A DNA stretch of 64,000 nucleotides from a virus (Duplodnaviria; Caudoviricetes), in the IMG/VR virus record IMGVR_UViG_3300028854_000488; one strand, given 5' to 3'. How positions within the stretch are numbered: the first letter of the stretch is position 1; the number at the start of each line of letters is the position of its first letter. A model generated the notes under the pieces. The model was not told where the DNA came from. It ran no database searches and was given only the letters and a program-made list of their open reading frames with translations. Made by a program: the position numbers and the translations under genes. Below, one piece after another: positions 4,646 to 60,551 of this stretch.

Positions 4646-6349
4646 TTATTTAATATCAATATTATTGTAATATACAAATTTTAGATTACCAGAATCATAT
4701 ATTCTATATATCTTTCTTTCTAACATTATTTCATGCTCTGTTTTATTAATATCAAATCCATCCATAACTAATTTATTTTTTCTGAAGTTAAATTTATTAT
4801 ATCTATTTCTATTTATGACATAAAAATAATTAGGATCAGTTTTTCCTTCATATTTAAATCCTAATTTTTCATATAATTTACCTTGACTAATAGATCTATC
4901 TGAGTACACTGTTATTTTATTAGAATTATAATTTTTAATAAAATAATTAAATAATTGATATTCTCCTTCTATAATATCAGTATTTAATATATTACAAAAC
5001 CTTAATAAATTATATTCTCCTTCATTTATAATATGTCTATTATCAAATGTCATAAGACTTACTAATTTTTTTTCATAAAATAATCCAATTTTAATTTTTG
5101 AACCTATAAATCCTTGAATATTATTATTATTAAGAAATTCTCTAGCTAAATTATTATTATCAATTTTTTTTATTTCACAGTCTATAGCATATATTTTATT
5201 TTTTATTTTTCCTAATTTATTTAATATTATAGATTTTATTATCTCTCTCTTATATAGCCATTCGTCTTCCCATATATGAATTAATTGTATTCCTAATTTT
5301 TCACATTCTTCAGTTTTATTTAAATGATAATTATTATCTTTATTTACTTCATTATGCCAATATATACCATTATATTCAAATGCTAATTTTAAATCTGGTA
5401 AATAAATATCTAATTCTAATGGAGATATTATAGATTTACTATTTAATATTATAGATTTACTATAATTTTCTGATATGAATTCTATAATTTTAGATTCCAT
5501 GAATGAATTAGATGACGGATTACATTTAGGACATAAAATAATATGTTCTAACATTTTATGATTAAACATAGTTTTTGAAATTTTATATGAATGATCACAT
5601 TTATCACATTTAATAATTAAATGATTATCTTCAACTTCAATAATATTTATTTCTTTATATTTATCTTTATATTTTTCAGCGAATTTAGATTTTATTATAT
5701 CACTTTTAAAAGGTGAAATGTTACCATATTTTTCTAAATTTGTGTCTTTTATTTTTTGTTTTATTTTTTCATTTTGAGCTGGATGTTCAAAACCATATTT
5801 TTTTAAATTGGTATTTTTAATTTTATTTTCTATATTTTTATTTTGAGCAGGATATTCTACTCCATATCTTTCTAAATTAGTATTTTTAATTTTATCTCTA
5901 ATTTCTTTATTTTCTAAAGGAATTTCCGTACCATATTTTTCTAAATTTGTTTTTTTTATTTTTTCTTTTACTTCATTATTTAATAATGAAGTTTTATACC
6001 CGTATTTTTTTAAATTAGTTTTTTCTGCTTTTTCTTTTATTTCTTTATTTTTCATAGGATTATCAACTCCAAATAATATATTACTTGTTAGTTTGAATTT
6101 TTCCTTGGAACATTTTTTACAACCATAATAATTATGATTATTGAAATTTTTATAATATTTTTCGATTGAAATATAATTTTCAGAATCACATTTCTCACAA
6201 ATCGCTGTAATTTTAAGTTTTGAATTTTTATTTACATCTTCAATTTTTATATTACAAGTATTACCATTTATAACATTATATCCTAAATTTTTATAATATG
6301 TTATATTTCTACTTGTCATTTGTATATTTAACTCTTTTTCTTTTATCAT
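4646..6349 (-). CDS. Hef-like free-standing homing endonuclease (PD-(D/E)xK/Vsr-like) with TxLxKYG repeats
   Basis: ELDIYLPDLKLAFEYNGIYWH, LIHIWEDEW, Zn-like CxxC pairs, repeated (T/N)LEKYG units. Confidence 0.8.
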   Translation of the reverse strand: MIKEKELNIQMTSRNITYYKNLGYNVINGNTCNIKIEDVNKNSKLKITAICEKCDSENYISIEKYYKNFNNHNYYGCKKCSKEKFKLTSNILFGVDNPMKNKEIKEKAEKTNLKKYGYKTSLLNNEVKEKIKKTNLEKYGTEIPLENKEIRDKIKNTNLERYGVEYPAQNKNIENKIKNTNLKKYGFEHPAQNEKIKQKIKDTNLEKYGNISPFKSDIIKSKFAEKYKDKYKEINIIEVEDNHLIIKCDKCDHSYKISKTMFNHKMLEHIILCPKCNPSSNSFMESKIIEFISENYSKSIILNSKSIISPLELDIYLPDLKLAFEYNGIYWHNEVNKDNNYHLNKTEECEKLGIQLIHIWEDEWLYKREIIKSIILNKLGKIKNKIYAIDCEIKKIDNNNLAREFLNNNNIQGFIGSKIKIGLFYEKKLVSLMTFDNRHIINEGEYNLLRFCNILNTDIIEGEYQLFNYFIKNYNSNKITVYSDRSISQGKLYEKLGFKYEGKTDPNYFYVINRNRYNKFNFRKNKLVMDGFDINKTEHEIMLERKIYRIYDSGNLKFVYYNNIDIK

Positions 6350-45747: not shown

Positions 45748-45802
45748 ACTACTTTTTATCTTTATATATAAAAAATGTATAATAAATTATTTGTAAAATT
45801 AG

Positions 45803-45885
45803 TGGACTGAGAGGGATTCGAACCCACAAGCTCCGAAGAGAACGCATTTACAGTGCGGCGAGCCAACCAACTGCTCAATCAATCC
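45803..45885 (-). tRNA. tRNA-Tyr(GTA)
   Basis: Anticodon loop CTGTAAA, long variable arm, GGTTCGAATCC. Confidence 0.9.
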
Positions 45886-45890
45886 ATTTG

Positions 45891-45963
45891 TACTCCCAGT
45901 AGGCATTGAACCTACATGACGTGCTTATAAGGCGCGCATACTTACCAATTATATGATAGGAGC
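45891..45963 (-). tRNA. tRNA-Ile(TAT)
   Basis: Anticodon loop CTTATAA; GTAGG-TTCAATG-CCTAC T arm. Confidence 0.85.
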
Positions 45964-45972
45964 ATTATTTAG

Positions 45973-46046
45973 TAGTCTCGGTGAGACTTGAACTCACGAT
46001 TTATTGCTTATCAGGCAATTGCTCTAACCAACTGAACTACAAGACT
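45973..46046 (-). tRNA. tRNA-Ile(GAT)
   Basis: Canonical cloverleaf, loop CTGATAA. Confidence 0.92.
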
Positions 46047-46113
46047 ATATAAGTTTATTTTTATTAATCATAACATACTATTAGTATGATAATAGTCACA
46101 ATTATAAACTATG

Positions 46114-46183
46114 TACCGAATATGATGTTCGAAATCATTTGGATTTCCTTATGAGAGAAATCTCTTTTCCACTAAGCTTCGGC
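46114..46183 (-). tRNA. Degenerate tRNA with CAT anticodon (Met or Ile2)
   Basis: Loop CTCATAA, T arm ATGAT-TTCGAAC-ATCAT; weak D arm. Confidence 0.6.
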
Positions 46184-46196
46184 ATTATGTTTATTG

Positions 46197-46270
46197 AGGC
46201 CAAGGTGGGACTCGAACCCACACAATATAGTTTTGCAGACTATCCCCTTATTCCATTCGGGCACTCGGTC
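46197..46270 (-). tRNA. tRNA-Cys(GCA)
   Basis: Loop CTGCAAA, U73 discriminator. Confidence 0.9.
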
Positions 46271-46278
46271 ATTTTTTG

Positions 46279-46350
46279 CGGGAGTGAGGAATCACGATAT
46301 CCTAACCTACTGGTTAACAGCCAGTTGCTCTGCCTTTGAGCTACATTCCC
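46279..46350 (-). tRNA. tRNA-Asn(GTT) with non-canonical T loop
   Basis: Loop CTGTTAA, G73; T loop ATCGTGA. Confidence 0.8.
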
Positions 46351-46361
46351 ATATATTTTTG

Positions 46362-46436
46362 CTGGAATAGTTGGATTCGAACCAATAACCCTCACTTTAA
46401 CAAAGTGCCGCTCTAACCGTTAAGAGCTACATTCCA
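46362..46436 (-). tRNA. tRNA-Asn(GTT)
   Basis: Loop TTGTTAA, G73, canonical T loop. Confidence 0.88.
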
Positions 46437-46444
46437 ATAATAAG

Positions 46445-46519
46445 CGGACTATAACGGTTACGGTCCGTTAATTTTACTTGAGTGACGGTCAAGTTCTCCA
46501 CCAAGGAGCCTAATAATCC
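46445..46519 (-). tRNA. tRNA-Asp(GTC) with non-canonical T loop
   Basis: CTTGA-CCGTCAC-TCAAG; T arm AACGG-ACCGTAA-CCGTT; G73. Confidence 0.75.
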
Positions 46520-46525
46520 ATTTTT

Positions 46526-46600
46526 TGGTACTGATTAAGAGAGTTGAACTCTTCTTGGCAGGTTGAAAACCTGTAGTCCTAACCGATAGACGAAACCAGC
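46526..46600 (-). tRNA. tRNA-Glu(TTC) with encoded CCA
   Basis: Loop TTTTCAA; ends ...AATCAGT-A-CCA. Confidence 0.9.
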
Positions 46601-47035: not shown

Positions 47036-47725
47036 TTATTTAAAATTCTTTATTATTCCTGATATTGTGGATTTTGAACAATCTAATAACTTAGAAATGT
47101 CTATTTGTCTTACTCCATCAATATATAATTTTTTAACAACTTCTTTATCTATTTTACTAGACATTTTTTTAAATTTTAATGATTTGTTTTTTATTAGTTC
47201 ATAATTATTATTAAAAAAATCAACATCAGAATGTTCAATTGTATGACAATTTGCACATAATATTTGACATTTATTTAATTCTTCTATTATTTCTATTCTT
47301 ATCTCTTCTATGGAAGAAATATTTTCTTTGACAAATCTAAATTCAAAATTTTTATCTTTTAAATGATGAAAATGTAATGCACTTGTTGTATTATTATATC
47401 CACATTTTTCACATCCTTTTACATTTTTATATTCTAAGAATATTTTTTTATCATTTGTTCTATATGTCTTAGGTTTATCATGAAACTCATAATGACAATT
47501 TTGACATAATAACTCACATTTTTCAACTTCTTTGAATATATTTTTCCAATTTTTACCCCACATACGAGATAATCTATATTCTTTATCTTCAGAATTCGTA
47601 TGATGAAAACATAATTTAAAAAAATTAGTTTCTCCACATTTTTTACATTTACCTCCTAAAAAATTTATTGCTTTTAATTTTTTAGCAAATCTTAAAATTT
47701 TAGTACTATACATTTTATCTGTCAT
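47036..47725 (-). CDS. Tandem double-HNH endonuclease inserted in the tRNA region
   Basis: Two CxxCG...FHH...ExxKCxLLCxNCH units; C-terminal HTH-like segment. Confidence 0.85.
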   Translation of the reverse strand: MTDKMYSTKILRFAKKLKAINFLGGKCKKCGETNFFKLCFHHTNSEDKEYRLSRMWGKNWKNIFKEVEKCELLCQNCHYEFHDKPKTYRTNDKKIFLEYKNVKGCEKCGYNNTTSALHFHHLKDKNFEFRFVKENISSIEEIRIEIIEELNKCQILCANCHTIEHSDVDFFNNNYELIKNKSLKFKKMSSKIDKEVVKKLYIDGVRQIDISKLLDCSKSTISGIIKNFK

Positions 47726-49346: not shown

Positions 49347-49868
49347 TTAGTGTTGACTAACTGTTATATTCTTTAAATTATTAAATAATCCATCGTGTTC
49401 AAGTGCGCTATAATAGTTTCCGTCATTATCTGAATAGCTGAAGCAATACATTACTGATCCAGTTACTTCTTTTCCATCAATTATTTGAAGTTTTAACTTT
49501 CTTATATTAAAGAAATCTTTAAGTATTTTTGCTGAATATTTATTTGTAGCATTGTTATATGCTGTCCATCTATCAGATGAATCCTCTATATATTTAAAAT
49601 CATCATATTCAGGCGCTCCATCTCCATAATATCCGCTACTTAAAATTTCAATAGCTTTTTCAGTATTATTTTTAGTTTGATCACATATGTCAGACCATAC
49701 AGTCATTGCAACTTGTTCAACTGAATAAGTATTATCAAAATCATAATATGATTGATTTTTAGTGAATAACATATTTTTTACATCATTTACACATTTAGGT
49801 TCCATTGGAAAAATAACGATAAAACTACTTGATGATGAGTTACTAACAAAACCATTTCTTATTTTCAT
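49347..49868 (-). CDS. MKIRxGFVSNSSSSSF-family protein
   Basis: N-terminus MKIRNGFVSNSSSSSFIV. Confidence 0.85.
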   Translation of the reverse strand: MKIRNGFVSNSSSSSFIVIFPMEPKCVNDVKNMLFTKNQSYYDFDNTYSVEQVAMTVWSDICDQTKNNTEKAIEILSSGYYGDGAPEYDDFKYIEDSSDRWTAYNNATNKYSAKILKDFFNIRKLKLQIIDGKEVTGSVMYCFSYSDNDGNYYSALEHDGLFNNLKNITVSQH

Positions 49869-50031
49869 ATTATTTTATTTTTATCTTTTTTATTAGTTAA
49901 ATCTATTTTGATGTCTGGTTTTTTGAAAATTGCTTCAAAAATTCCTACAATAAAACTTCCTATAATAGAAATTATTAAAAAACATCCAATAAATGTCCAA
50001 AAATCTGAAGTTACATATTTTAAAATTTCTA

Positions 50032-50670
50032 TCATATATTTTTATTTATTTCGTCTAATTTATCTTTTCTTTTATATATTGGATTACACACTAAACATAT
50101 AAGTCCATGTTTTTTTGTGTTCCACATATCATAATAATCGCCATTTTTCTTACATTTTGGACAATATGTTGAACTTTCTTTACCAACTATTTTAAAATCT
50201 AAAGAATAATAATCATTATCAAAAGCATCAAAATCATTTTCATATTTAGTTAAATATTCTATAGTATTCCAGTCATCACTATTAACTTTATAATTTTGTT
50301 GTATTATTCTTAATTCTGATATCGCATCATCTGATAATTTTGTATTATATTCATACAACTCCCAATCTTCGTTATTGCATGTAGAAACTAAATAGCGATC
50401 AGCTACTTTTTTTATATATGTATCATAGTTACAACTTTGAAAGGTTATAGCTTGATTTTCATCTATATTTTTTAATATATTAATATATGAATTATATTCA
50501 GTTATACTATATGCATCATATTCTTTATTTTTCATATCATTATCAATATATTGTTCATATTTTACATTAATCATATATGTAGCAAGATCACGTACACTCT
50601 TAAAACTTTTATCAGAAATTATAAAACTACTAGATGACGAATTACTTACAAATCCACTTCTTATTTTCAT
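50032..50670 (-). CDS. MKIRxGFVSNSSSSSF-family protein with C-terminal Zn ribbon
   Basis: MKIRSGFVSNSSSSSFII; CPKC...CLVC; RKDKL. Confidence 0.85.
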   Translation of the reverse strand: MKIRSGFVSNSSSSSFIISDKSFKSVRDLATYMINVKYEQYIDNDMKNKEYDAYSITEYNSYINILKNIDENQAITFQSCNYDTYIKKVADRYLVSTCNNEDWELYEYNTKLSDDAISELRIIQQNYKVNSDDWNTIEYLTKYENDFDAFDNDYYSLDFKIVGKESSTYCPKCKKNGDYYDMWNTKKHGLICLVCNPIYKRKDKLDEINKNI

Positions 50671-50684
50671 TTTTATTATTTATA

Positions 50685-50987
50685 TTAACAATATCTAGTT
50701 CCAGTTATTAATTCAACTTCACTGATATCAACATTTAATGTTTCAGATACCAATTTAGATTTTTCTATTATATCATCTATTGATGTTATACTACTATATA
50801 ATTCTTCTCCATTTGAAATTATATAACCAATAATATAATTATAGTTAGTCATATCCACATAAAGTGTTTCTATTCCATTATCAAACCCTTGTTCAATTTC
50901 TTCTTCTGTACAATCTAATCTTTTGACTCCAATTATTACAAAACTACTTGAACTTGAATTACTTACAAATCCTGTTCTTATTTTCAT
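50685..50987 (-). CDS. MKIRxGFVSNSSSSSF-family protein
   Basis: MKIRTGFVSNSSSSSFVI. Confidence 0.85.
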   Translation of the reverse strand: MKIRTGFVSNSSSSSFVIIGVKRLDCTEEEIEQGFDNGIETLYVDMTNYNYIIGYIISNGEELYSSITSIDDIIEKSKLVSETLNVDISEVELITGTRYC

Positions 50988-51007
50988 TTTTTATTTATCT
51001 TTTATTT

Positions 51008-52042
51008 TTATAATAAATGTGGTTTTGCTTCAGCAATTCCAGCATTTGTTACTTGAACCCATTTTGGATTATATTCAGATAGATTGTTAGCTCCACCATA
51101 AGATAATGCTGAACGAACTCCATCTATTAATCCTTCTATTACAAATTTGACACCACCTTTAAATGGTATTGTTGTTGACTCACCTTCCACGTTTCTTTCT
51201 GCTTGATTGTGAACAGTTTTTGTTTCTAATGAAGCAGAGCCTCTATAACGTTTATATAAGCCATTAGAACTCTCTATAATCTTTCCTGGTGACTCTTCTG
51301 TTCCAGCTAATAGAGAACCTAACATAACACTAGATGATCCTAATGCAAGAGCCTTAGAAATATCACCGCTATTTCTAATTCCTCCATCTGCCATAACAGG
51401 AACTTTAGCAACAGATATAATATCAATTAAACTTGTTACACTTGGTATTCCAAATCCTGTTTTTAACCTTGTTGTACATAACGCCCCATTTCCAATTCCG
51501 CATCTTAATCCATCAGCACCCCAATTCTGTAAATCAATTGCTGCTTCTGCTGTTGCAATGTTACCTGCAATTACATCAATATTTAAATTTAAGCCTTTAA
51601 TTGCTTCAATTGCTTTTTTGACATTTATATGATGTCCATGAGCAACATCAATAAGAATGACATTTACTCCAGATTTAATTAATTCTTTTGCTCTTTCTAA
51701 AAAATCTCCAGTTGATCCTACTGCAGCCATTATTGGAATTTTACGTCCAATAAAAGGATTATGAGAACTATTATTAATATAATTAGTTAATTTTTTAATT
51801 TCAACAATTTGATCTTCTATAGTCATAAATCTATGAATACATCCAATGCCTCCTAATTGAAACATTTTACATGCCATTTCATATTCACAAACTGTATCCA
51901 TTGGTGATGCAACTAATGGTATAATTAATTCATAATTTTTTGATAACTTTGTTATTAAACTAATTTCACTTCTATGTTCTACTTCAGAATATGATGGTAT
52001 GTTTTGAATATCGTCATATGTTAATGCTATATTATTTATCAT
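51008..52042 (-). CDS. IMPDH/GMP reductase family protein without CBS domains (GMP reductase favoured)
   Basis: ASPMDTV, IDVAHGH, AGNIAT, GIGNGALCTTR, ADGGI, YRGSAS, VEG. Confidence 0.85.
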   Translation of the reverse strand: MINNIALTYDDIQNIPSYSEVEHRSEISLITKLSKNYELIIPLVASPMDTVCEYEMACKMFQLGGIGCIHRFMTIEDQIVEIKKLTNYINNSSHNPFIGRKIPIMAAVGSTGDFLERAKELIKSGVNVILIDVAHGHHINVKKAIEAIKGLNLNIDVIAGNIATAEAAIDLQNWGADGLRCGIGNGALCTTRLKTGFGIPSVTSLIDIISVAKVPVMADGGIRNSGDISKALALGSSSVMLGSLLAGTEESPGKIIESSNGLYKRYRGSASLETKTVHNQAERNVEGESTTIPFKGGVKFVIEGLIDGVRSALSYGGANNLSEYNPKWVQVTNAGIAEAKPHLL

Positions 52043-52087
52043 TTTTTATTTTATATTTTATATTATTTAATTTTTATTTAATTTTCA

Positions 52088-52531
52088 TTAAAATGATATT
52101 AATTTTAAATATCTACTATCAAAATTAATACTATTATTTATATGAGATCGTAATATTGGATGCAATTTAAAACTTAAATCTGAATCAGATATTATATCAA
52201 TATTTCCAATATATTTTTCGAAATTTTTAATTACATTTTTAGTATTATTAATATTAGAATTTAATATAAAATTAATAATATTTAATAATTCAAAATCTTG
52301 CTTATTAATTTTCCATATTTCACAATATTTAGACCAAAAATTCATATCATAATCTATCTCTTGTTTCTTATAATTATTTTCAATATCACATATAAAAATA
52401 TTTTTACCTAATTTATTAAAAAAAGTCATTGATTTTTCTATTAAATAATCAGGTGATGTATATATGATTTTATTATCATTTAACATAATACCAAGGTAAT
52501 AAAATATATTATGAATTTGATTTTTTGTCAT
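52088..52531 (-). CDS. Hypothetical protein
   Basis: 147-aa ORF. Confidence 0.7.
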   Translation of the reverse strand: MTKNQIHNIFYYLGIMLNDNKIIYTSPDYLIEKSMTFFNKLGKNIFICDIENNYKKQEIDYDMNFWSKYCEIWKINKQDFELLNIINFILNSNINNTKNVIKNFEKYIGNIDIISDSDLSFKLHPILRSHINNSINFDSRYLKLISF

Positions 52532-52556
52532 AATTTTTTTAATTATAAATAATTAT

Positions 52557-52949
52557 TTAATAATTGTCATTACTTACCATTTGAATATACGTGCAAATTA
52601 CTCCTGAAATTCCATATTTTTCAAATTTTTGACGTAATGCATCATCTTCTTCTGGTGTACGATCTTTAAATTCTGTTACTTCACCATCTTCTAATCCACC
52701 GAGTGAATCACCTACAATAAGAGTATTATAATCTTTTTCTCCAAAATAATTACCATTTACTTCAATTCTGAAATCATCATCAATTTTATTTGATATAAAT
52801 TCATATTTATCATATTCATCTTCAATATTATCAAATTCTTCAATAGGAATATTTAATACTTTAACTAATTCTTCTACTGTAATTTTAATTCCTCTTATCA
52901 CAAAAGATGAACTACTTGAATTACTTACAAAACCATTTCTTATTTTCAT
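52557..52949 (-). CDS. MKIRxGFVSNSSSSSF-family protein
   Basis: MKIRNGFVSNSSSSSFVI. Confidence 0.85.
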   Translation of the reverse strand: MKIRNGFVSNSSSSSFVIRGIKITVEELVKVLNIPIEEFDNIEDEYDKYEFISNKIDDDFRIEVNGNYFGEKDYNTLIVGDSLGGLEDGEVTEFKDRTPEEDDALRQKFEKYGISGVICTYIQMVSNDNY

Positions 52950-52968
52950 TTAATTTTTTTTTTTAATT

Positions 52969-53412
52969 TTAATAACTTCCTCCACTTTGAATACGAATGT
53001 TATCATTATCAACATTTATTCCTTTATCACATAGATAAGATTCTAGTCCATCACCAGAATCATCAGATGCTGAACATTCATAATAACGATATTCTTTATT
53101 CTTTATTTTTTCTAACTCTTCTCTTGAAATATCAGGACAACTATCATTTATAATTATATTTATCATATCTTCTTCTGATAAATTTTTATCTTCTGAATAA
53201 CAATAATTATTAAATATATCTTTAATAGTCATTTCTTTTAGATTTTCTAACATCCAATTAGATAATTCAGAAGCAAATCCACATAGAATAGAGTTTTCTT
53301 TTAAATCAAATAATTTCATAAGCATATTATTTGATATTTTTTGATCATTTTTAATAAGAACTATAAAAGAACTACTACTACTGTTGCTTACAAATCCATT
53401 TCGTATTTTCAT
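52969..53412 (-). CDS. MKIRxGFVSNSSSSSF-family protein
   Basis: MKIRNGFVSNSSSSSFIV. Confidence 0.85.
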   Translation of the reverse strand: MKIRNGFVSNSSSSSFIVLIKNDQKISNNMLMKLFDLKENSILCGFASELSNWMLENLKEMTIKDIFNNYCYSEDKNLSEEDMINIIINDSCPDISREELEKIKNKEYRYYECSASDDSGDGLESYLCDKGINVDNDNIRIQSGGSY

Positions 53413-53413
53413 A

Positions 53414-53767
53414 TTATTTATTATTTAAAATTTCATTAATTTTATTTTTATTTGCAATAATAATTTTGCCTTCATCTGGTCCACCTTCAACTTCTGCAAT
53501 TACATATGGCTTAACTAATTTATCTAAATGATCAGGAAAATCGAAATCTTCAAATTCATCTGTATTACAATACTCATATATGGAATCATACCATAATTCT
53601 TCATTGTCGATGAGCATTTTTAATAAGTCTTTAAATCCATCTAATGGAAAATCTTCATATTTATTAGTAATCTTATCATAATCAATAACATCAAGAAAAT
53701 TCTCAGGTAACAGAATTACAAAAGACGAACTACTTGAGTTGCTCACAAATCCACTTCTTATTTTCAT
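53414..53767 (-). CDS. MKIRxGFVSNSSSSSF-family protein
   Basis: MKIRSGFVSNSSSSSFVI. Confidence 0.85.
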   Translation of the reverse strand: MKIRSGFVSNSSSSSFVILLPENFLDVIDYDKITNKYEDFPLDGFKDLLKMLIDNEELWYDSIYEYCNTDEFEDFDFPDHLDKLVKPYVIAEVEGGPDEGKIIIANKNKINEILNNK

Positions 53768-53792: not shown

Positions 53793-54306
53793 TTAGTTTA
53801 TTAATCTATCAATTCCTATTGCAAATCCAACTCCTCCATCATATTCTCCCCCACCACAAATTTGTTTTGATGAACCTAATTTTTCACAAGTGATTTCAAA
53901 TCCTTTACCGTCTTTATAATAATCAAGTCCTCGTTTAACATCATTATTAATGATATAATTATCAATATTGACAGTGAAATTATTTGTTAATAATTTCATT
54001 GCTAAATGTTGTAAATTTGCTCCTTCAGATAGATAATCATGAGTAGGATTTAATATTTCAACTCCAAATTGTGTAAATTCTCGGAATCTTGCATATTGTG
54101 GTTTTTCACCACGGAAACATCATGTTGTTATTCTCTTCACCAACTTTATTTTTGAATAATTCTTGAAGTTGAATAATAGGTATTTGAATTTCTTGAAAAT
54201 GATATTCATCAATTAATATTGTAATCATAGAATTAATCAAGTTTCTCTTTTCATTACCAACTAAAATTCTGGTTCCTTTATAACAAGTTTCTTTTATTAT
54301 TTTCAT
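53793..54306 (-). pseudogene. hisS: Minimal histidyl-tRNA synthetase-like catalytic domain, frameshifted and internally deleted near 54115
   Basis: Frame 1: KGTR...FQEIQIPII..ELF.NKVGEE..MMF. Frame 2: FRGEKPQYARFREFTQFGVE (motif 2), RGLDYY, GGGEYD, GFAIGIDRL (motif 3). Confidence 0.8.
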
Positions 54307-58517: not shown

Positions 58518-59558
58518 ATGGAAGAATGTAAAATATGTAATAAAAAGTTTAAAAGTTGGGGAGGGTTAATTAAACACGTAATTTCATCTCACAATGTTTC
58601 TAAAAAATACTATTATGACTCTTTCTATAAAAAAGAGAATGAAGGAATATGTCCTGTTTGTGGCGAAGAAGCAAGTTTTAATAAAAGAGCATTTGGCTAT
58701 TTTATACATTGTTCAAATAAATGTGTAAATAAAAATCCAAAAACAAGGGAGAAAATAATAGAAACAAATATGATAAGATATGGAGTATCAAATAATACTC
58801 AATTAGATTACTATAAAAATTTAAATCGTGAAATTTGGAAAAATAAATCAAAAGAAGATCTTGACAGTATTGTACAAAAAACAAAAAATACATGTTTAGA
58901 AAAATATGGTGAAGATAATCCTGCAAAATTAGATGATGTTAAACAAAAAATGAAAGATTCTTGTTTAGAAAAATTTGGAACAGAATACGCATTACAAAAT
59001 AAAGATGTGATAGAAAAAAGAAAAATGACAAATTTAGAAAAATATGGTGTTGAAAATGTATTTCAAATTCCAGATATTATTAAAAAATTACGTCAAAACA
59101 TGATTGATAAAGGATATAGAGTAGATGAAAACGATTATACAAAATTTGAAAATTATTATAAAAAATGTCAAAGTTTAACAAAAATAAACATTAGAGCTAC
59201 CAATTTTAAAGAAAATTGGAATGGTTATGATTATTATGATAATGAATATATAAAAGATAATTATGTATTATATGAACAAAATAATGAAAATTATCCAAAT
59301 ATTGATCATAAAATAAGTATAATTTATGGATTTTTAAACGATATAAATTATGAAGATATTTGTGCTATTGAAAATCTATGTTTCACTAAAAGAAGACATA
59401 ATGCATCAAAACACACAAAAAATGAAGATGATTATAAAAAAGTGACAATTTTTAATTGTCACTTTTTATTAAATTTTATATATCGGACAATCTCTACCGC
59501 AAGACAACAAATTATTTTTAAAATTTTTAGTTTTTTCGTTATTCCAAATATCAGTTAA
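58518..59558 (+). CDS. HNH-like homing endonuclease with C2H2-like Zn finger and KYG repeats
   Basis: CKIC...H...H; WNGYDYYDNEYI...YPNIDHK...NLCFTKRRHNASK. Confidence 0.75.
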   Translation: MEECKICNKKFKSWGGLIKHVISSHNVSKKYYYDSFYKKENEGICPVCGEEASFNKRAFGYFIHCSNKCVNKNPKTREKIIETNMIRYGVSNNTQLDYYKNLNREIWKNKSKEDLDSIVQKTKNTCLEKYGEDNPAKLDDVKQKMKDSCLEKFGTEYALQNKDVIEKRKMTNLEKYGVENVFQIPDIIKKLRQNMIDKGYRVDENDYTKFENYYKKCQSLTKINIRATNFKENWNGYDYYDNEYIKDNYVLYEQNNENYPNIDHKISIIYGFLNDINYEDICAIENLCFTKRRHNASKHTKNEDDYKKVTIFNCHFLLNFIYRTISTARQQIIFKIFSFFVIPNIS

Positions 59559-60551
59559 GAAATCATTACAATTCAATACACTTAATCCGTTTTTCCATTC
59601 ATCATTAACACCTTCACAGAAACTACATGGAAAATAATTTCCATCTACATTTACATAAGAAGAGTAAACTGAACTCTCACAAGGCTCAATACATTGATCC
59701 ATTTGATCTTTAAATTCTGTAGTTAAAGATTCATCTGATTCCAAATAAGTGAAGAATTTGCGACTGCTGCATGAGTCAAATCCGAACCTAATTTTTTTTG
59801 ATATTGAATATTTGCACAATTCATTAAATTTTTCTTGTGATAATTGAGAAAAACCAGTTTTTGCATTTCCTTTCTGCTTGAGTGACAAAAAAATAATAGC
59901 GTTCATTTTACTAAGTCTTGGATCATTTTGCATATCATTTATAACTTCATATGCTGTATCAATAGTATTTTCCGAAATCATAAAATGTATATTTATTTGA
60001 TCCATTCCACGGTTTGTCAATTCAGATATTGCGTTATAAGTCAACTCTTTATCATATACGCTAATTGCTACTGCTCCGCAATATTTTGCAAGATTATCAA
60101 AATACTCTGATGCCATTCTTGCTCCATTAATTGTAACGTTAGGAATTACAGAATTTTCTCTACAATATTCAAAAATTTTCCACATATCAGGATTACTATC
60201 AATATCTCCAATTCCTGCTGCTAATTGAGTTATTGATGGAGGTAGTTTAGAAAATACTTTTTTGAAAGTTTCAAAATTCATATACTTGCCCTTAGAATTA
60301 TTAGATTTATAACAAAATTTACAAGGTGTTCCAACTCCATGACATGTTGTACTAATCTCCATGTCTATGATCTCTGGTAATGATAAATCAATATCTCCAT
60401 CATCTTCTTCTGTTTTACCCCATCTTGCGAAGTAACCGTTTTTCTTATTGAAGAAGAAATTATAGTTTTCTGATTTTAATATTTTAGCATCATTAGTATC
60501 TACAATTAGTGCGTCTTCTCCGTTAGAGAGTTTTAATTTAGTTTGTTTCAT
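59469..60551 (-). CDS. Radical SAM enzyme with C-terminal Twitch/SPASM-like domain
   Basis: CHGVGTPCKFC (CX6CX2C variant), VTINGA, PCES...YVNVDGNYFPCSFC...CP. Confidence 0.85.
   Translation of the reverse strand: MKQTKLKLSNGEDALIVDTNDAKILKSENYNFFFNKKNGYFARWGKTEEDDGDIDLSLPEIIDMEISTTCHGVGTPCKFCYKSNNSKGKYMNFETFKKVFSKLPPSITQLAAGIGDIDSNPDMWKIFEYCRENSVIPNVTINGARMASEYFDNLAKYCGAVAISVYDKELTYNAISELTNRGMDQINIHFMISENTIDTAYEVINDMQNDPRLSKMNAIIFLSLKQKGNAKTGFSQLSQEKFNELCKYSISKKIRFGFDSCSSRKFFTYLESDESLTTEFKDQMDQCIEPCESSVYSSYVNVDGNYFPCSFCEGVNDEWKNGLSVLNCNDFLTDIWNNEKTKNFKNNLLSCGRDCPIYKI

Follow-up and report, generated by a model that had tools for sequence, protein, structure and literature searches.

Several described radical S-adenosylmethionine (SAM) systems come close to the one considered here. 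Anaerobic sulfatase-maturating enzymes (anSMEs), such as AtsB and anSMEcpe, carry a C-terminal Fe-S domain and act on a short motif in the N-terminal region of whole proteins. Maturases of RiPPs (peptides that are made on the ribosome and modified after translation), which include SkfB, SuiB/StrB, CteB, PqqE and EpeE, work on a variable core that follows a leader. BtrN oxidises a C-OH group of a small-molecule aminocyclitol. FxsA and FxsB pair a peptide ending in FxSxx-COOH with a radical SAM/SPASM enzyme in conflict systems of the STAND (signal transduction ATPases with numerous domains)/vWA type (Kaur et al. 2020, PMC7159879). The locus described here lies in IMG/VR record IMGVR_UViG_3300028854_000488 (Duplodnaviria; Caudoviricetes), of which the whole 64,000-nucleotide stretch analysed is referred to as the window. 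Six minus-strand open reading frames (ORFs) of the window share the start MKIR[NST]GFVSNSSSSSF[IV][IV], hereafter the tag, and a radical SAM enzyme with a Twitch/SPASM-type C-terminal domain is encoded nearby at 59469-60551. The reading favoured here, with a probability of roughly 60%, makes the tag the enzyme's substrate segment. The enzyme-plus-tag pair is probably an unrecognised protein-modification system, as it recurs in phages and in bacterial immune-type operons without a described function.

The six ORFs were first noticed in a sequence-only reading of the window. Both the ORF list and a six-frame regular-expression search confirm them at the positions it gave, and the 64 kb hold exactly six copies of the tag. 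Across the 15 pairwise comparisons of the six ORFs, codons 1-16 contain 85 synonymous and 11 non-synonymous differences, all 11 of the latter at position 5, whereas codons 17-32 contain 11 synonymous and 216 non-synonymous differences. The serines of the tag are written in a mixture of TCN and AGY codons. The pattern of codon differences indicates selection on the peptide rather than a DNA repeat, as had been proposed. Conservation ends abruptly past residue 18: up to there it is near-invariant, and from residue 19 it is random. Compared by BLASTP without their tags, no two of the six bodies give an E-value better than 0.45, and single-linkage clustering leaves them in six separate clusters; none of the six proteins has a Pfam or NCBIfam match. 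The description of the six as otherwise unrelated holds to this extent but needs two qualifications, as the 147-amino acid (aa) member is related to a bacterial partner family and the 100-aa and 130-aa members share a C-terminal ending that is visible by eye, although not significant by hhalign.

The anatomy of the tag was examined over 185 loci with a loose pattern that allowed D, S, Q or H at position 10 and T, A or G (or C) at positions 11 and 12. The tag, written generally as M-K-(I/V)-R-x-G-F-V-S-N-S-S-S-S-S-F, was recovered 525 times. N10, S11 and S12 are constant in 525/525, and S15 is almost fixed. Thr, Ala or Cys is accepted at positions 9, 13 and 14. Replacement of G6 by Ser and of F7 by Tyr is rare, and some tags have Tyr in place of F16. 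The tag starts at residue 1 of its ORF, or at residue 2 after M-A, M-G, M-C or M-S, and is never internal. A glycyl-radical site was considered and rejected: the R-x-G-F of the tag is one residue shorter than the R-V-x-G-[FWY] glycine loop of glycyl-radical domains and lies in a disordered N-terminus. Pyruvate formate-lyase (PFL) activase is only a distant structural match of the enzyme.

The radical SAM gene that the sequence-only reading had placed near the tagged genes, on the same strand, is real. Its product matches phrog_7293 with an E-value of 2.3e-87 and just passes the Pfam SPASM model (22.1 bits against a cut-off of 21.5). In an alignment of 23 homologues (A3), C70, C77 and C80, the cysteines of the motif for the 4Fe-4S cluster that cleaves SAM, are invariant, and the gap between the first and second of these cysteines varies from 3 to 17 residues. 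The C70-C77 spacing varies through a Gly/Pro-rich insertion, which is unusual for the family. The AlphaFold2 model (predicted local distance difference test (pLDDT) 92.5) has a five-stranded N-terminal β domain, without helices, ahead of the barrel. Foldseek matches this model to 203 PDB chains at E<=0.001, and all of those among the matches listed are radical SAM enzymes. The invariant three-cysteine motif and the fold match place the protein in the radical SAM superfamily. In structure it comes closest to SkfB, SuiB (also with SuiA bound), CteB, peptide-bound anSMEcpe, PqqE and EpeE, and its profile matches are the Twitch region of BtrN (E 1.7e-4, positions 281-343) and SkfB.

In the C-terminal part, the only cysteines invariant among the 23 homologues are C261, C291, C309 and C355. 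A full SPASM domain has seven or eight conserved cysteines arranged as CX9-15GX4C ... CX2CX5CX3C ... C, which is not the arrangement seen here. The four cysteines fit one auxiliary cluster of the Twitch-like kind. The window enzyme has no NCBIfam match, including to the FxsB and anSME models, and the best NCBIfam matches of a bacterial homologue (GeoRSP, MftC, WgkB and StrB-type) fall far under their cut-offs.

The sequence-only reading had named co-occurrence with this radical SAM subfamily as a check, and the association proves strong in both directions. Starting from the tag, an enzyme homologue (E<=1e-5) lies on 37 of 49 tag-bearing IMG/VR contigs and on 9/9 of those that are >=90% complete. 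Starting from the enzyme, a tagged ORF is found within 10 kb at 69 of 80 loci, rising to 74 with a looser pattern that admits alternative start codons and one extra residue. All 249 of 249 tags share the strand of the enzyme, at a median distance of 660 nt. The nearest tag is downstream of the enzyme in 59/69 loci, and a tag gene directly adjoins it in at least 17 contigs. In the lineage of the window, the tags lie 3.7-5.7 kb downstream. The largest array seen, on a 461 kb contig (L213, IMGVR_UViG_3300037247_001786), has 13 tagged genes within 10 kb of the enzyme. Cultured phages carry the enzyme in 173 of 50,697 records and a phrog_7397 protein, the family of one of the six tagged proteins, in 169, from the same host genera. 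Clustering of the same-strand ORFs at 79 enzyme loci found no untagged family in more than 10 of them; the widespread neighbours are tagged families only, and neither a protease nor any other third gene is conserved near the enzyme at these loci. Hence, the system is two-component in phages.

The pair also extends into bacteria. A search of bacterial and archaeal assemblies with the DNA pattern of the tag returned 77 stretches, each stored with <=8 kb of sequence, and in 39 of them the enzyme falls within that sequence. These matches form two classes. The first consists of phage-like contigs with an enzyme 39-49% identical to that of the window. The second consists of bacterial assemblies, many with contigs of hundreds of kb to Mb, in which the enzyme is 27-31% identical and immediately follows one tagged 137-aa gene; the taxa include Veillonella parvula, Acetatifactor muris, Lachnobacterium bovis, Sulfuricurvum, Verrucomicrobia and Acidobacteriota. 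In Lachnobacterium bovis, the operon reads STAND nucleoside triphosphatase (NTPase), 143-aa protein, tagged 137-aa protein, radical SAM/SPASM enzyme and 313-aa protein, and the operon of Acetatifactor muris matches it by ORF layout. The STAND NTPase has a weak NACHT match and a PADLOC match to Avs2 (E 7e-12), and the 313-aa protein has an M1E1E6-like C-terminus. This conserved five-gene operon looks like an undescribed defence system of the NLR (nucleotide-binding leucine-rich repeat) type with the tag-enzyme pair as a module. In the window, the remaining proteins of this operon lack homologues.

The link between the phage and bacterial versions runs through the 147-aa protein of the window. 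With the tag removed, its body matches the bacterial 137-aa family by hhalign (97.2%, E 4.7e-11, 108 columns), while the other five window bodies show no relation to that family by the same method. On the basis of this tag-less homology, the 147-aa gene is the ancestral partner of the enzyme, with the tag seemingly spread by phages to further small proteins. Variants of the tag also differ between enzyme clades. The T9 variant occurs in 20/28 tags beside the bacterial enzyme clade vs 0/358 beside the phage clade, and T14 in 25/28 vs 29/358. That tag variants track the enzyme clade is suggestive only, as the comparison rests on two clades.

Prediction of a complex, as the sequence-only reading had suggested, places the tag specifically in the catalytic barrel. 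The model combined the enzyme (alignment A3) with the first 40 residues of the 130-aa family, SAM and two 4Fe-4S clusters. The complex scored 0.90 (three runs, 0.88-0.91), against 0.00 for the best of three controls; in a rough calibration, the 0.90 mark was reached by 58/80 solved complexes and 2/110 mismatched pairs. At least 72% of contacts agree between runs, and the partner pLDDT is at least 56. On the partner, the contacts span residues 1-18, which is precisely the extent of the tag. The first four of these pair with residues 41-44 of the enzyme, and F7 contacts residues 38-39, 136-138 and 158-160. The full contact set on the enzyme comprises residues 38-45, 61, 63, 109, 111, 136-140, 158-162, 185-189, 217-222, 255-261, 284-299 and 309-310, and coincides with invariant columns of A3. 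As a model, the complex supports binding of the tag by the enzyme, and demonstrates neither binding nor catalysis.

The sequence-only reading took the tag for a modification, processing or docking site tied to the nearby radical SAM enzyme, and this is supported by the co-occurrence, the disordered tag on unrelated bodies and the complex prediction. Computation shows that enzyme and tag are linked, that tag variant and enzyme clade covary and that the tag is obligately N-terminal, and it predicts the docking; catalysis on the tag, the residue attacked, the product and the biological role are inferred, along the following lines. Tag residues 1-4 would add as a β-strand to strand 41-44 of the enzyme's N-terminal β domain. 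Residues 6-16 would lie inside the partial triosephosphate isomerase (TIM) barrel, against the auxiliary-cluster domain and at the invariant residues of the enzyme. SAM would be reductively cleaved, and the resulting 5'-deoxyadenosyl radical would abstract hydrogen at a position of the tag that most probably belongs to the N10-S11-S12 core. The outcome would be one covalent change on each tagged protein, giving the same chemical feature to many unrelated small proteins.

Two kinds of product are considered. Serine oxidation, yielding a formylglycine-like group as in anSME or BtrN dehydrogenases, would fit the auxiliary cluster, the resemblance to BtrN and anSMEs, and the exclusion of Thr from both position 11 and position 12. 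Equally conceivable, by analogy, is a cross-link between side chains, such as a Phe7-x-Ser9 cyclophane, or an ether. F-x-S cyclophanes occur in triceptides, and the cross-link idea derives from this comparison together with the F-x-S motif of the Fxs system. As for function, the bacterial version in an operon with a STAND/Avs-like NTPase points, by analogy, to a role in phage-host conflict. A wider picture is offered more tentatively: one phage enzyme may put a single covalent mark on the N-termini of dozens to hundreds of unrelated proteins that serve as weapons or shields in this conflict, mirrored by the bacterial STAND/Avs-like-linked version.

Several points weigh against the tag being a substrate of the enzyme. 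The Pfam Radical_SAM score of the window enzyme is 19.8 bits, under the gathering threshold of 29.5, and its cluster motif is CX6CX2C rather than CX3CX2C. No enzyme was found on 12 of the 49 tag-bearing contigs, all of which are estimated to be <=40% complete. In the window, 5.7 kb and about 10 unrelated ORFs separate the enzyme from the nearest tagged gene, and 19-23 kb do so in KP27, a T4-like phage of Klebsiella; these gaps mean that the pair is not everywhere coupled in one operon. The counts for co-occurrence and covariation lack phylogenetic independence, and the covariation rests essentially on two clades. The complex score is the model's own confidence, and its calibration is rough since the authors' own alignments and riding ligands were used. 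A peptide-in-barrel mode is already known from the SuiB-SuiA, CteB-CteA and anSME-peptide structures, though these solved relatives share only 12-14% identity with the enzyme and bind peptides that have no relation to the tag. In docking, substrate, pseudo-substrate and docking handle look alike, and the chemistry is inferential at every step.

In one rival reading, the tag binds the enzyme without being chemically changed, as a docking handle or pseudo-substrate. The small proteins might then act as adaptors that bring targets to the enzyme, each diverse body recognising another target, or as regulatory plugs; in bacteria, the tagged protein could keep the enzyme inactive until the STAND sensor fires. 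Binding without catalysis would account equally well for the linkage data and the predicted complex, and a single tagged protein per enzyme beside a STAND/Avs2-like NTPase is a layout met with in regulated effector systems. However, the tag is predicted inside the barrel at invariant active-site residues and not at a peripheral surface. The invariant N10-S11-S12, with Thr never found at 11 or 12, looks more like a reaction site than a binding epitope, and the structurally closest enzymes all modify the peptide that they bind. Pure docking is on balance considered unlikely.

A reader other than the radical SAM enzyme is less probable by a good way. The tag would in this case be a sorting, processing or stability signal, for example for capsid targeting as in T4 internal proteins, for secretion or degradation, or for self-cleavage at Asn-Ser. 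T4 internal proteins carry an N-terminal capsid-targeting sequence, and the tag is likewise strictly N-terminal and occurs in T4-like phages; Asn-Ser bonds are able to self-cleave via a succinimide. Against this, the tag is also present in bacterial chromosomal STAND operons, where there is no virion, and it does not have the Glu cleavage motif of the T4 prohead protease type. A sorting signal also leaves the two-way linkage to the enzyme unexplained and lacks a conserved protease or third gene nearby.

The bodies behind the tag are highly diverse. A DNA-pattern scan of IMG/VR returned at least 117 stretches, which hold at least 236 complete ORFs that bear the tag (median length 131 aa), and the bodies from the IMG/VR matches listed fall into at least 69 BLAST clusters. 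Profile comparison among 17 body clusters gave a best hhalign probability of 41%, with most values <5%, and the 69 cluster representatives contain no credible Pfam domain, including no sulfatase. A common origin of some bodies is hinted at by a similar C-terminal tail, 'h-h-x-G-x-x-x-x', seen by eye in ~18/69 clusters including the 100-aa and 130-aa families. On account of this shared ending, part of the tagged-protein diversity may be one old superfamily. A single shared fold of the six window proteins was considered and is unsupported, given their six BLAST clusters and the hhalign maximum of 41%.

Structure prediction for the 130-aa protein (AlphaFold2, pLDDT 75) speaks to the same point. 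Residues 1-12 have pLDDT <50 and no secondary structure, and the first strand begins at residue 15. The C-terminal tail is moderately confident (last block pLDDT 66) and also without secondary structure. Foldseek found no PDB match for this fold at E<=0.001, the best being 0.058 to unrelated small α/β proteins, and in the ESM Atlas it matched only unnamed viral clusters and DUF7167 at a template modelling (TM) score of ~0.55. The suggestion that the motif might simply be the first β-strand of one shared fold is contradicted by the disordered residues 1-12 and the 69 body clusters. Least probable of all is a reading in which the tag serves a very divergent superfamily as its conserved first structural element, or as part of a binding site, and owes its linkage with the enzyme to shared phage ancestry instead of physical interaction: F16 and the two following hydrophobic residues do begin the first β-strand of the 130-aa model, ~18 clusters share the tail, a few give weak hhalign signals (28-41%) and 0/69 representatives have a known domain, which is unexpected for a freely placeable tag, but the first residues are unstructured, the bodies have no BLAST similarity and mostly <5% hhalign probability, conservation is lost at residue 19, the linkage persists at 27% enzyme identity in chromosomes of several bacterial phyla, and the complex prediction is specific against its controls.

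The tagged genes of the window are real genes, with homologues elsewhere. The 173-aa protein matches phrog_7397 over residues 1-173 (E 1.1e-14), while the phrog_7397 match of the other five is limited to residues 1-18 to 1-36. A tblastn search with the 173-aa protein returned 169 cultured-phage records. Its homologue in KP27 is KP27_130, which has the same 18-residue tag and starts with MKIRSGFVSNSSSSSFIV. The KP27 genome carries the tag despite an ordinary G+C content, that of the window being ~22%. Homologues of the 130-aa protein, aligned as A1, are typically 50-60% identical over the full length; besides the tag, the family invariants are R19, G80, D88, G89 and a C-terminal S-N-D-N-Y. In IMG/VR, the body clusters contain at least 5 (117-aa), 15 (147-aa), 6 (100-aa) and 8 (212-aa) members, and the 117-aa cluster is present at 10 enzyme loci.

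Table of the features discussed, with positions in the window except for the last entry.
Feature	Position	Strand	Remarks
Tagged protein, 173 aa	49347-49868	minus	phrog_7397 member
Tagged protein, 212 aa	50032-50670	minus	CxxC...CxxC zinc-ribbon-like C-terminal end
Tagged protein, 100 aa	50685-50987	minus	'G-T-R-x-C'-type tail, as in several other tagged families
GMP reductase/IMPDH-family gene	51008-52042	minus	Pfam IMPDH E 2.6e-98
Untagged ORF within the array, 147 aa	52088-52531	minus	no assigned function
Tagged protein, 130 aa	52557-52949	minus	199 homologues
Tagged protein, 147 aa	52969-53412	minus	member of the ancestral partner family
Tagged protein, 117 aa	53414-53767	minus	tag = residues 1-18, encoded at 53714-53767
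Histidyl-tRNA synthetase (HisRS)-like remnant	53793-54306	minus	~170 aa over two reading frames
Radical SAM enzyme	59469-60551	minus	Twitch/SPASM-type C-terminal domain, all-β N-terminal domain; phrog_7293
Seven tRNA genes	45802-46600	minus	Tyr, Ile-TAT, Ile-GAT, Cys, Asn x2, Glu
229-aa protein	47036-47725	minus	two Cys/His-rich HNH-like repeats, helix-turn-helix-like C-terminal tail (by eye)
DUF7487 protein	58518-59558	plus	
DUF7487 protein	4646-6349	minus	
Bacterial five-gene operon	L272:28-5206 (Lachnobacterium bovis); L229:1061-6831 (Acetatifactor muris); also L279, L242, L252 (Veillonella parvula)		

Two untagged genes stand within the array. The GMP reductase/IMPDH gene is near the enzyme in 10/79 loci only, all among close relatives of the window; it interrupts the tagged array and is no part of the system. 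The untagged 147-aa ORF beside it has a weak AimR-like match (E 0.0056) and is likewise kept only in close relatives of the window (7 loci). A HisRS-like gene had also been noted nearby. The remnant is recognisable, with a motif-2-like 'R-E-F-x-Q-x-G' and a motif-3-like 'G-G-G-x-Y-D...G-F-A-I-G-I-D-R' discernible by eye, but it is short, is broken by a frameshift near 54100-54110, reaches only E 0.25 with Pfam tRNA-synt_His and has no detectable link to the tag. A connection between HisRS and the tag was rejected, the gene being a frameshifted remnant that is not conserved with the system.

The tRNA genes lie just upstream of the tagged region. One of the two DUF7487 proteins has an N-terminal C2H2-type zinc finger, and the plus-strand DUF7487 gene is convergent with the radical SAM gene, whose 3' end it overlaps by ~90 nt; the DUF7487 genes may be mobile or of the homing type. 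A 995-aa protein of the window has matches solely in uncultured phages of 630-735 kb, and one of the tagged proteins was found on a 346,561 bp contig. From these relatives and this contig, the window sequence is part of a huge phage. The region has no DNA-level similarity to cultured phages.

If the enzyme does modify the tag, this would be new radical SAM chemistry on whole proteins rather than peptides, a portable protein-tagging chemistry and not a peptide natural-product pathway. The same step would be shared by many 'hypothetical' proteins of huge phages and of T4-like phages of Klebsiella, Enterobacter and E. coli, and the 16-residue portable tag could become a tool for site-specific protein modification. 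The STAND/Avs-like neighbour in bacteria ties the system to immunity and hints at a mechanism, so far undescribed, of the effector or counter-defence kind. As the pair is carried by the culturable phages KP27, KP15, RB43 and RB16, it is directly testable. No description of the tag or of the enzyme family was found in the literature, and the C-terminal FxSxx system was the one related description that turned up; in a 2026 ParA preprint, Fxs is the only related item named.

Among the known systems, the anSMEs resemble the phage enzyme in combining a radical SAM core and a C-terminal Fe-S domain with a short motif near the N-terminus of whole proteins, in having Ser as a possible target, and in structure (Foldseek E 6e-8 to 1e-6, TM ~0.53, 4k36-4k39). 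However, a (C/S)-x-(P/A)-x-R motif is missing from the tag, the four C-terminal cysteines correspond to one auxiliary cluster and not two, and the substrates would be many unrelated small proteins instead of one enzyme family. The phage enzyme also has an extra all-β N-terminal domain and no match to an anSME model in NCBIfam or Pfam. The comparison with anSMEs made in the sequence-only reading is thus kept as a working analogy only, the sulfatase motif and the second auxiliary cluster being absent.

The RiPP maturases include the closest structural relatives, with Foldseek E-values of 1e-10 for SkfB and 4e-10 for SuiA-bound SuiB. Shared features are a leader-like N-terminal segment, predicted to bind the N-terminal domain of the enzyme by strand addition, and a single enzyme for several tandem precursor genes. 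In contrast to a leader ahead of a variable core, the conserved segment here is seemingly the site of action. The 'core' is a folded protein of 70-300 aa, and neither a protease nor an exporter is linked to the system. In the model, the N-terminal domain consists of five β-strands rather than a winged-helix RiPP recognition element (RRE), and all NCBIfam maturase models score far under their cut-offs.

FxsA/FxsB is alike in associating an enzyme with small, fast-diverging proteins that keep a short F-x-S-containing motif, and in its occurrence in STAND conflict operons. The Fxs motif is C-terminal and freed by a metallopeptidase, whereas the tag is N-terminal and no peptidase is linked to it; moreover, the enzyme does not match the FxsB model and the system is found mainly in phages. 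BtrN shares a weak, local C-terminal profile match and the single auxiliary cluster, and its C-OH oxidation is the chemistry that serine oxidation would need, although its substrate is an aminocyclitol and not a protein. The system described here seems to work like the anSME and RiPP pairs, lacks features that define the anSME and Fxs systems and appears to lack those of RiPP maturation, and is probably a radical SAM maturase with cognate substrates.

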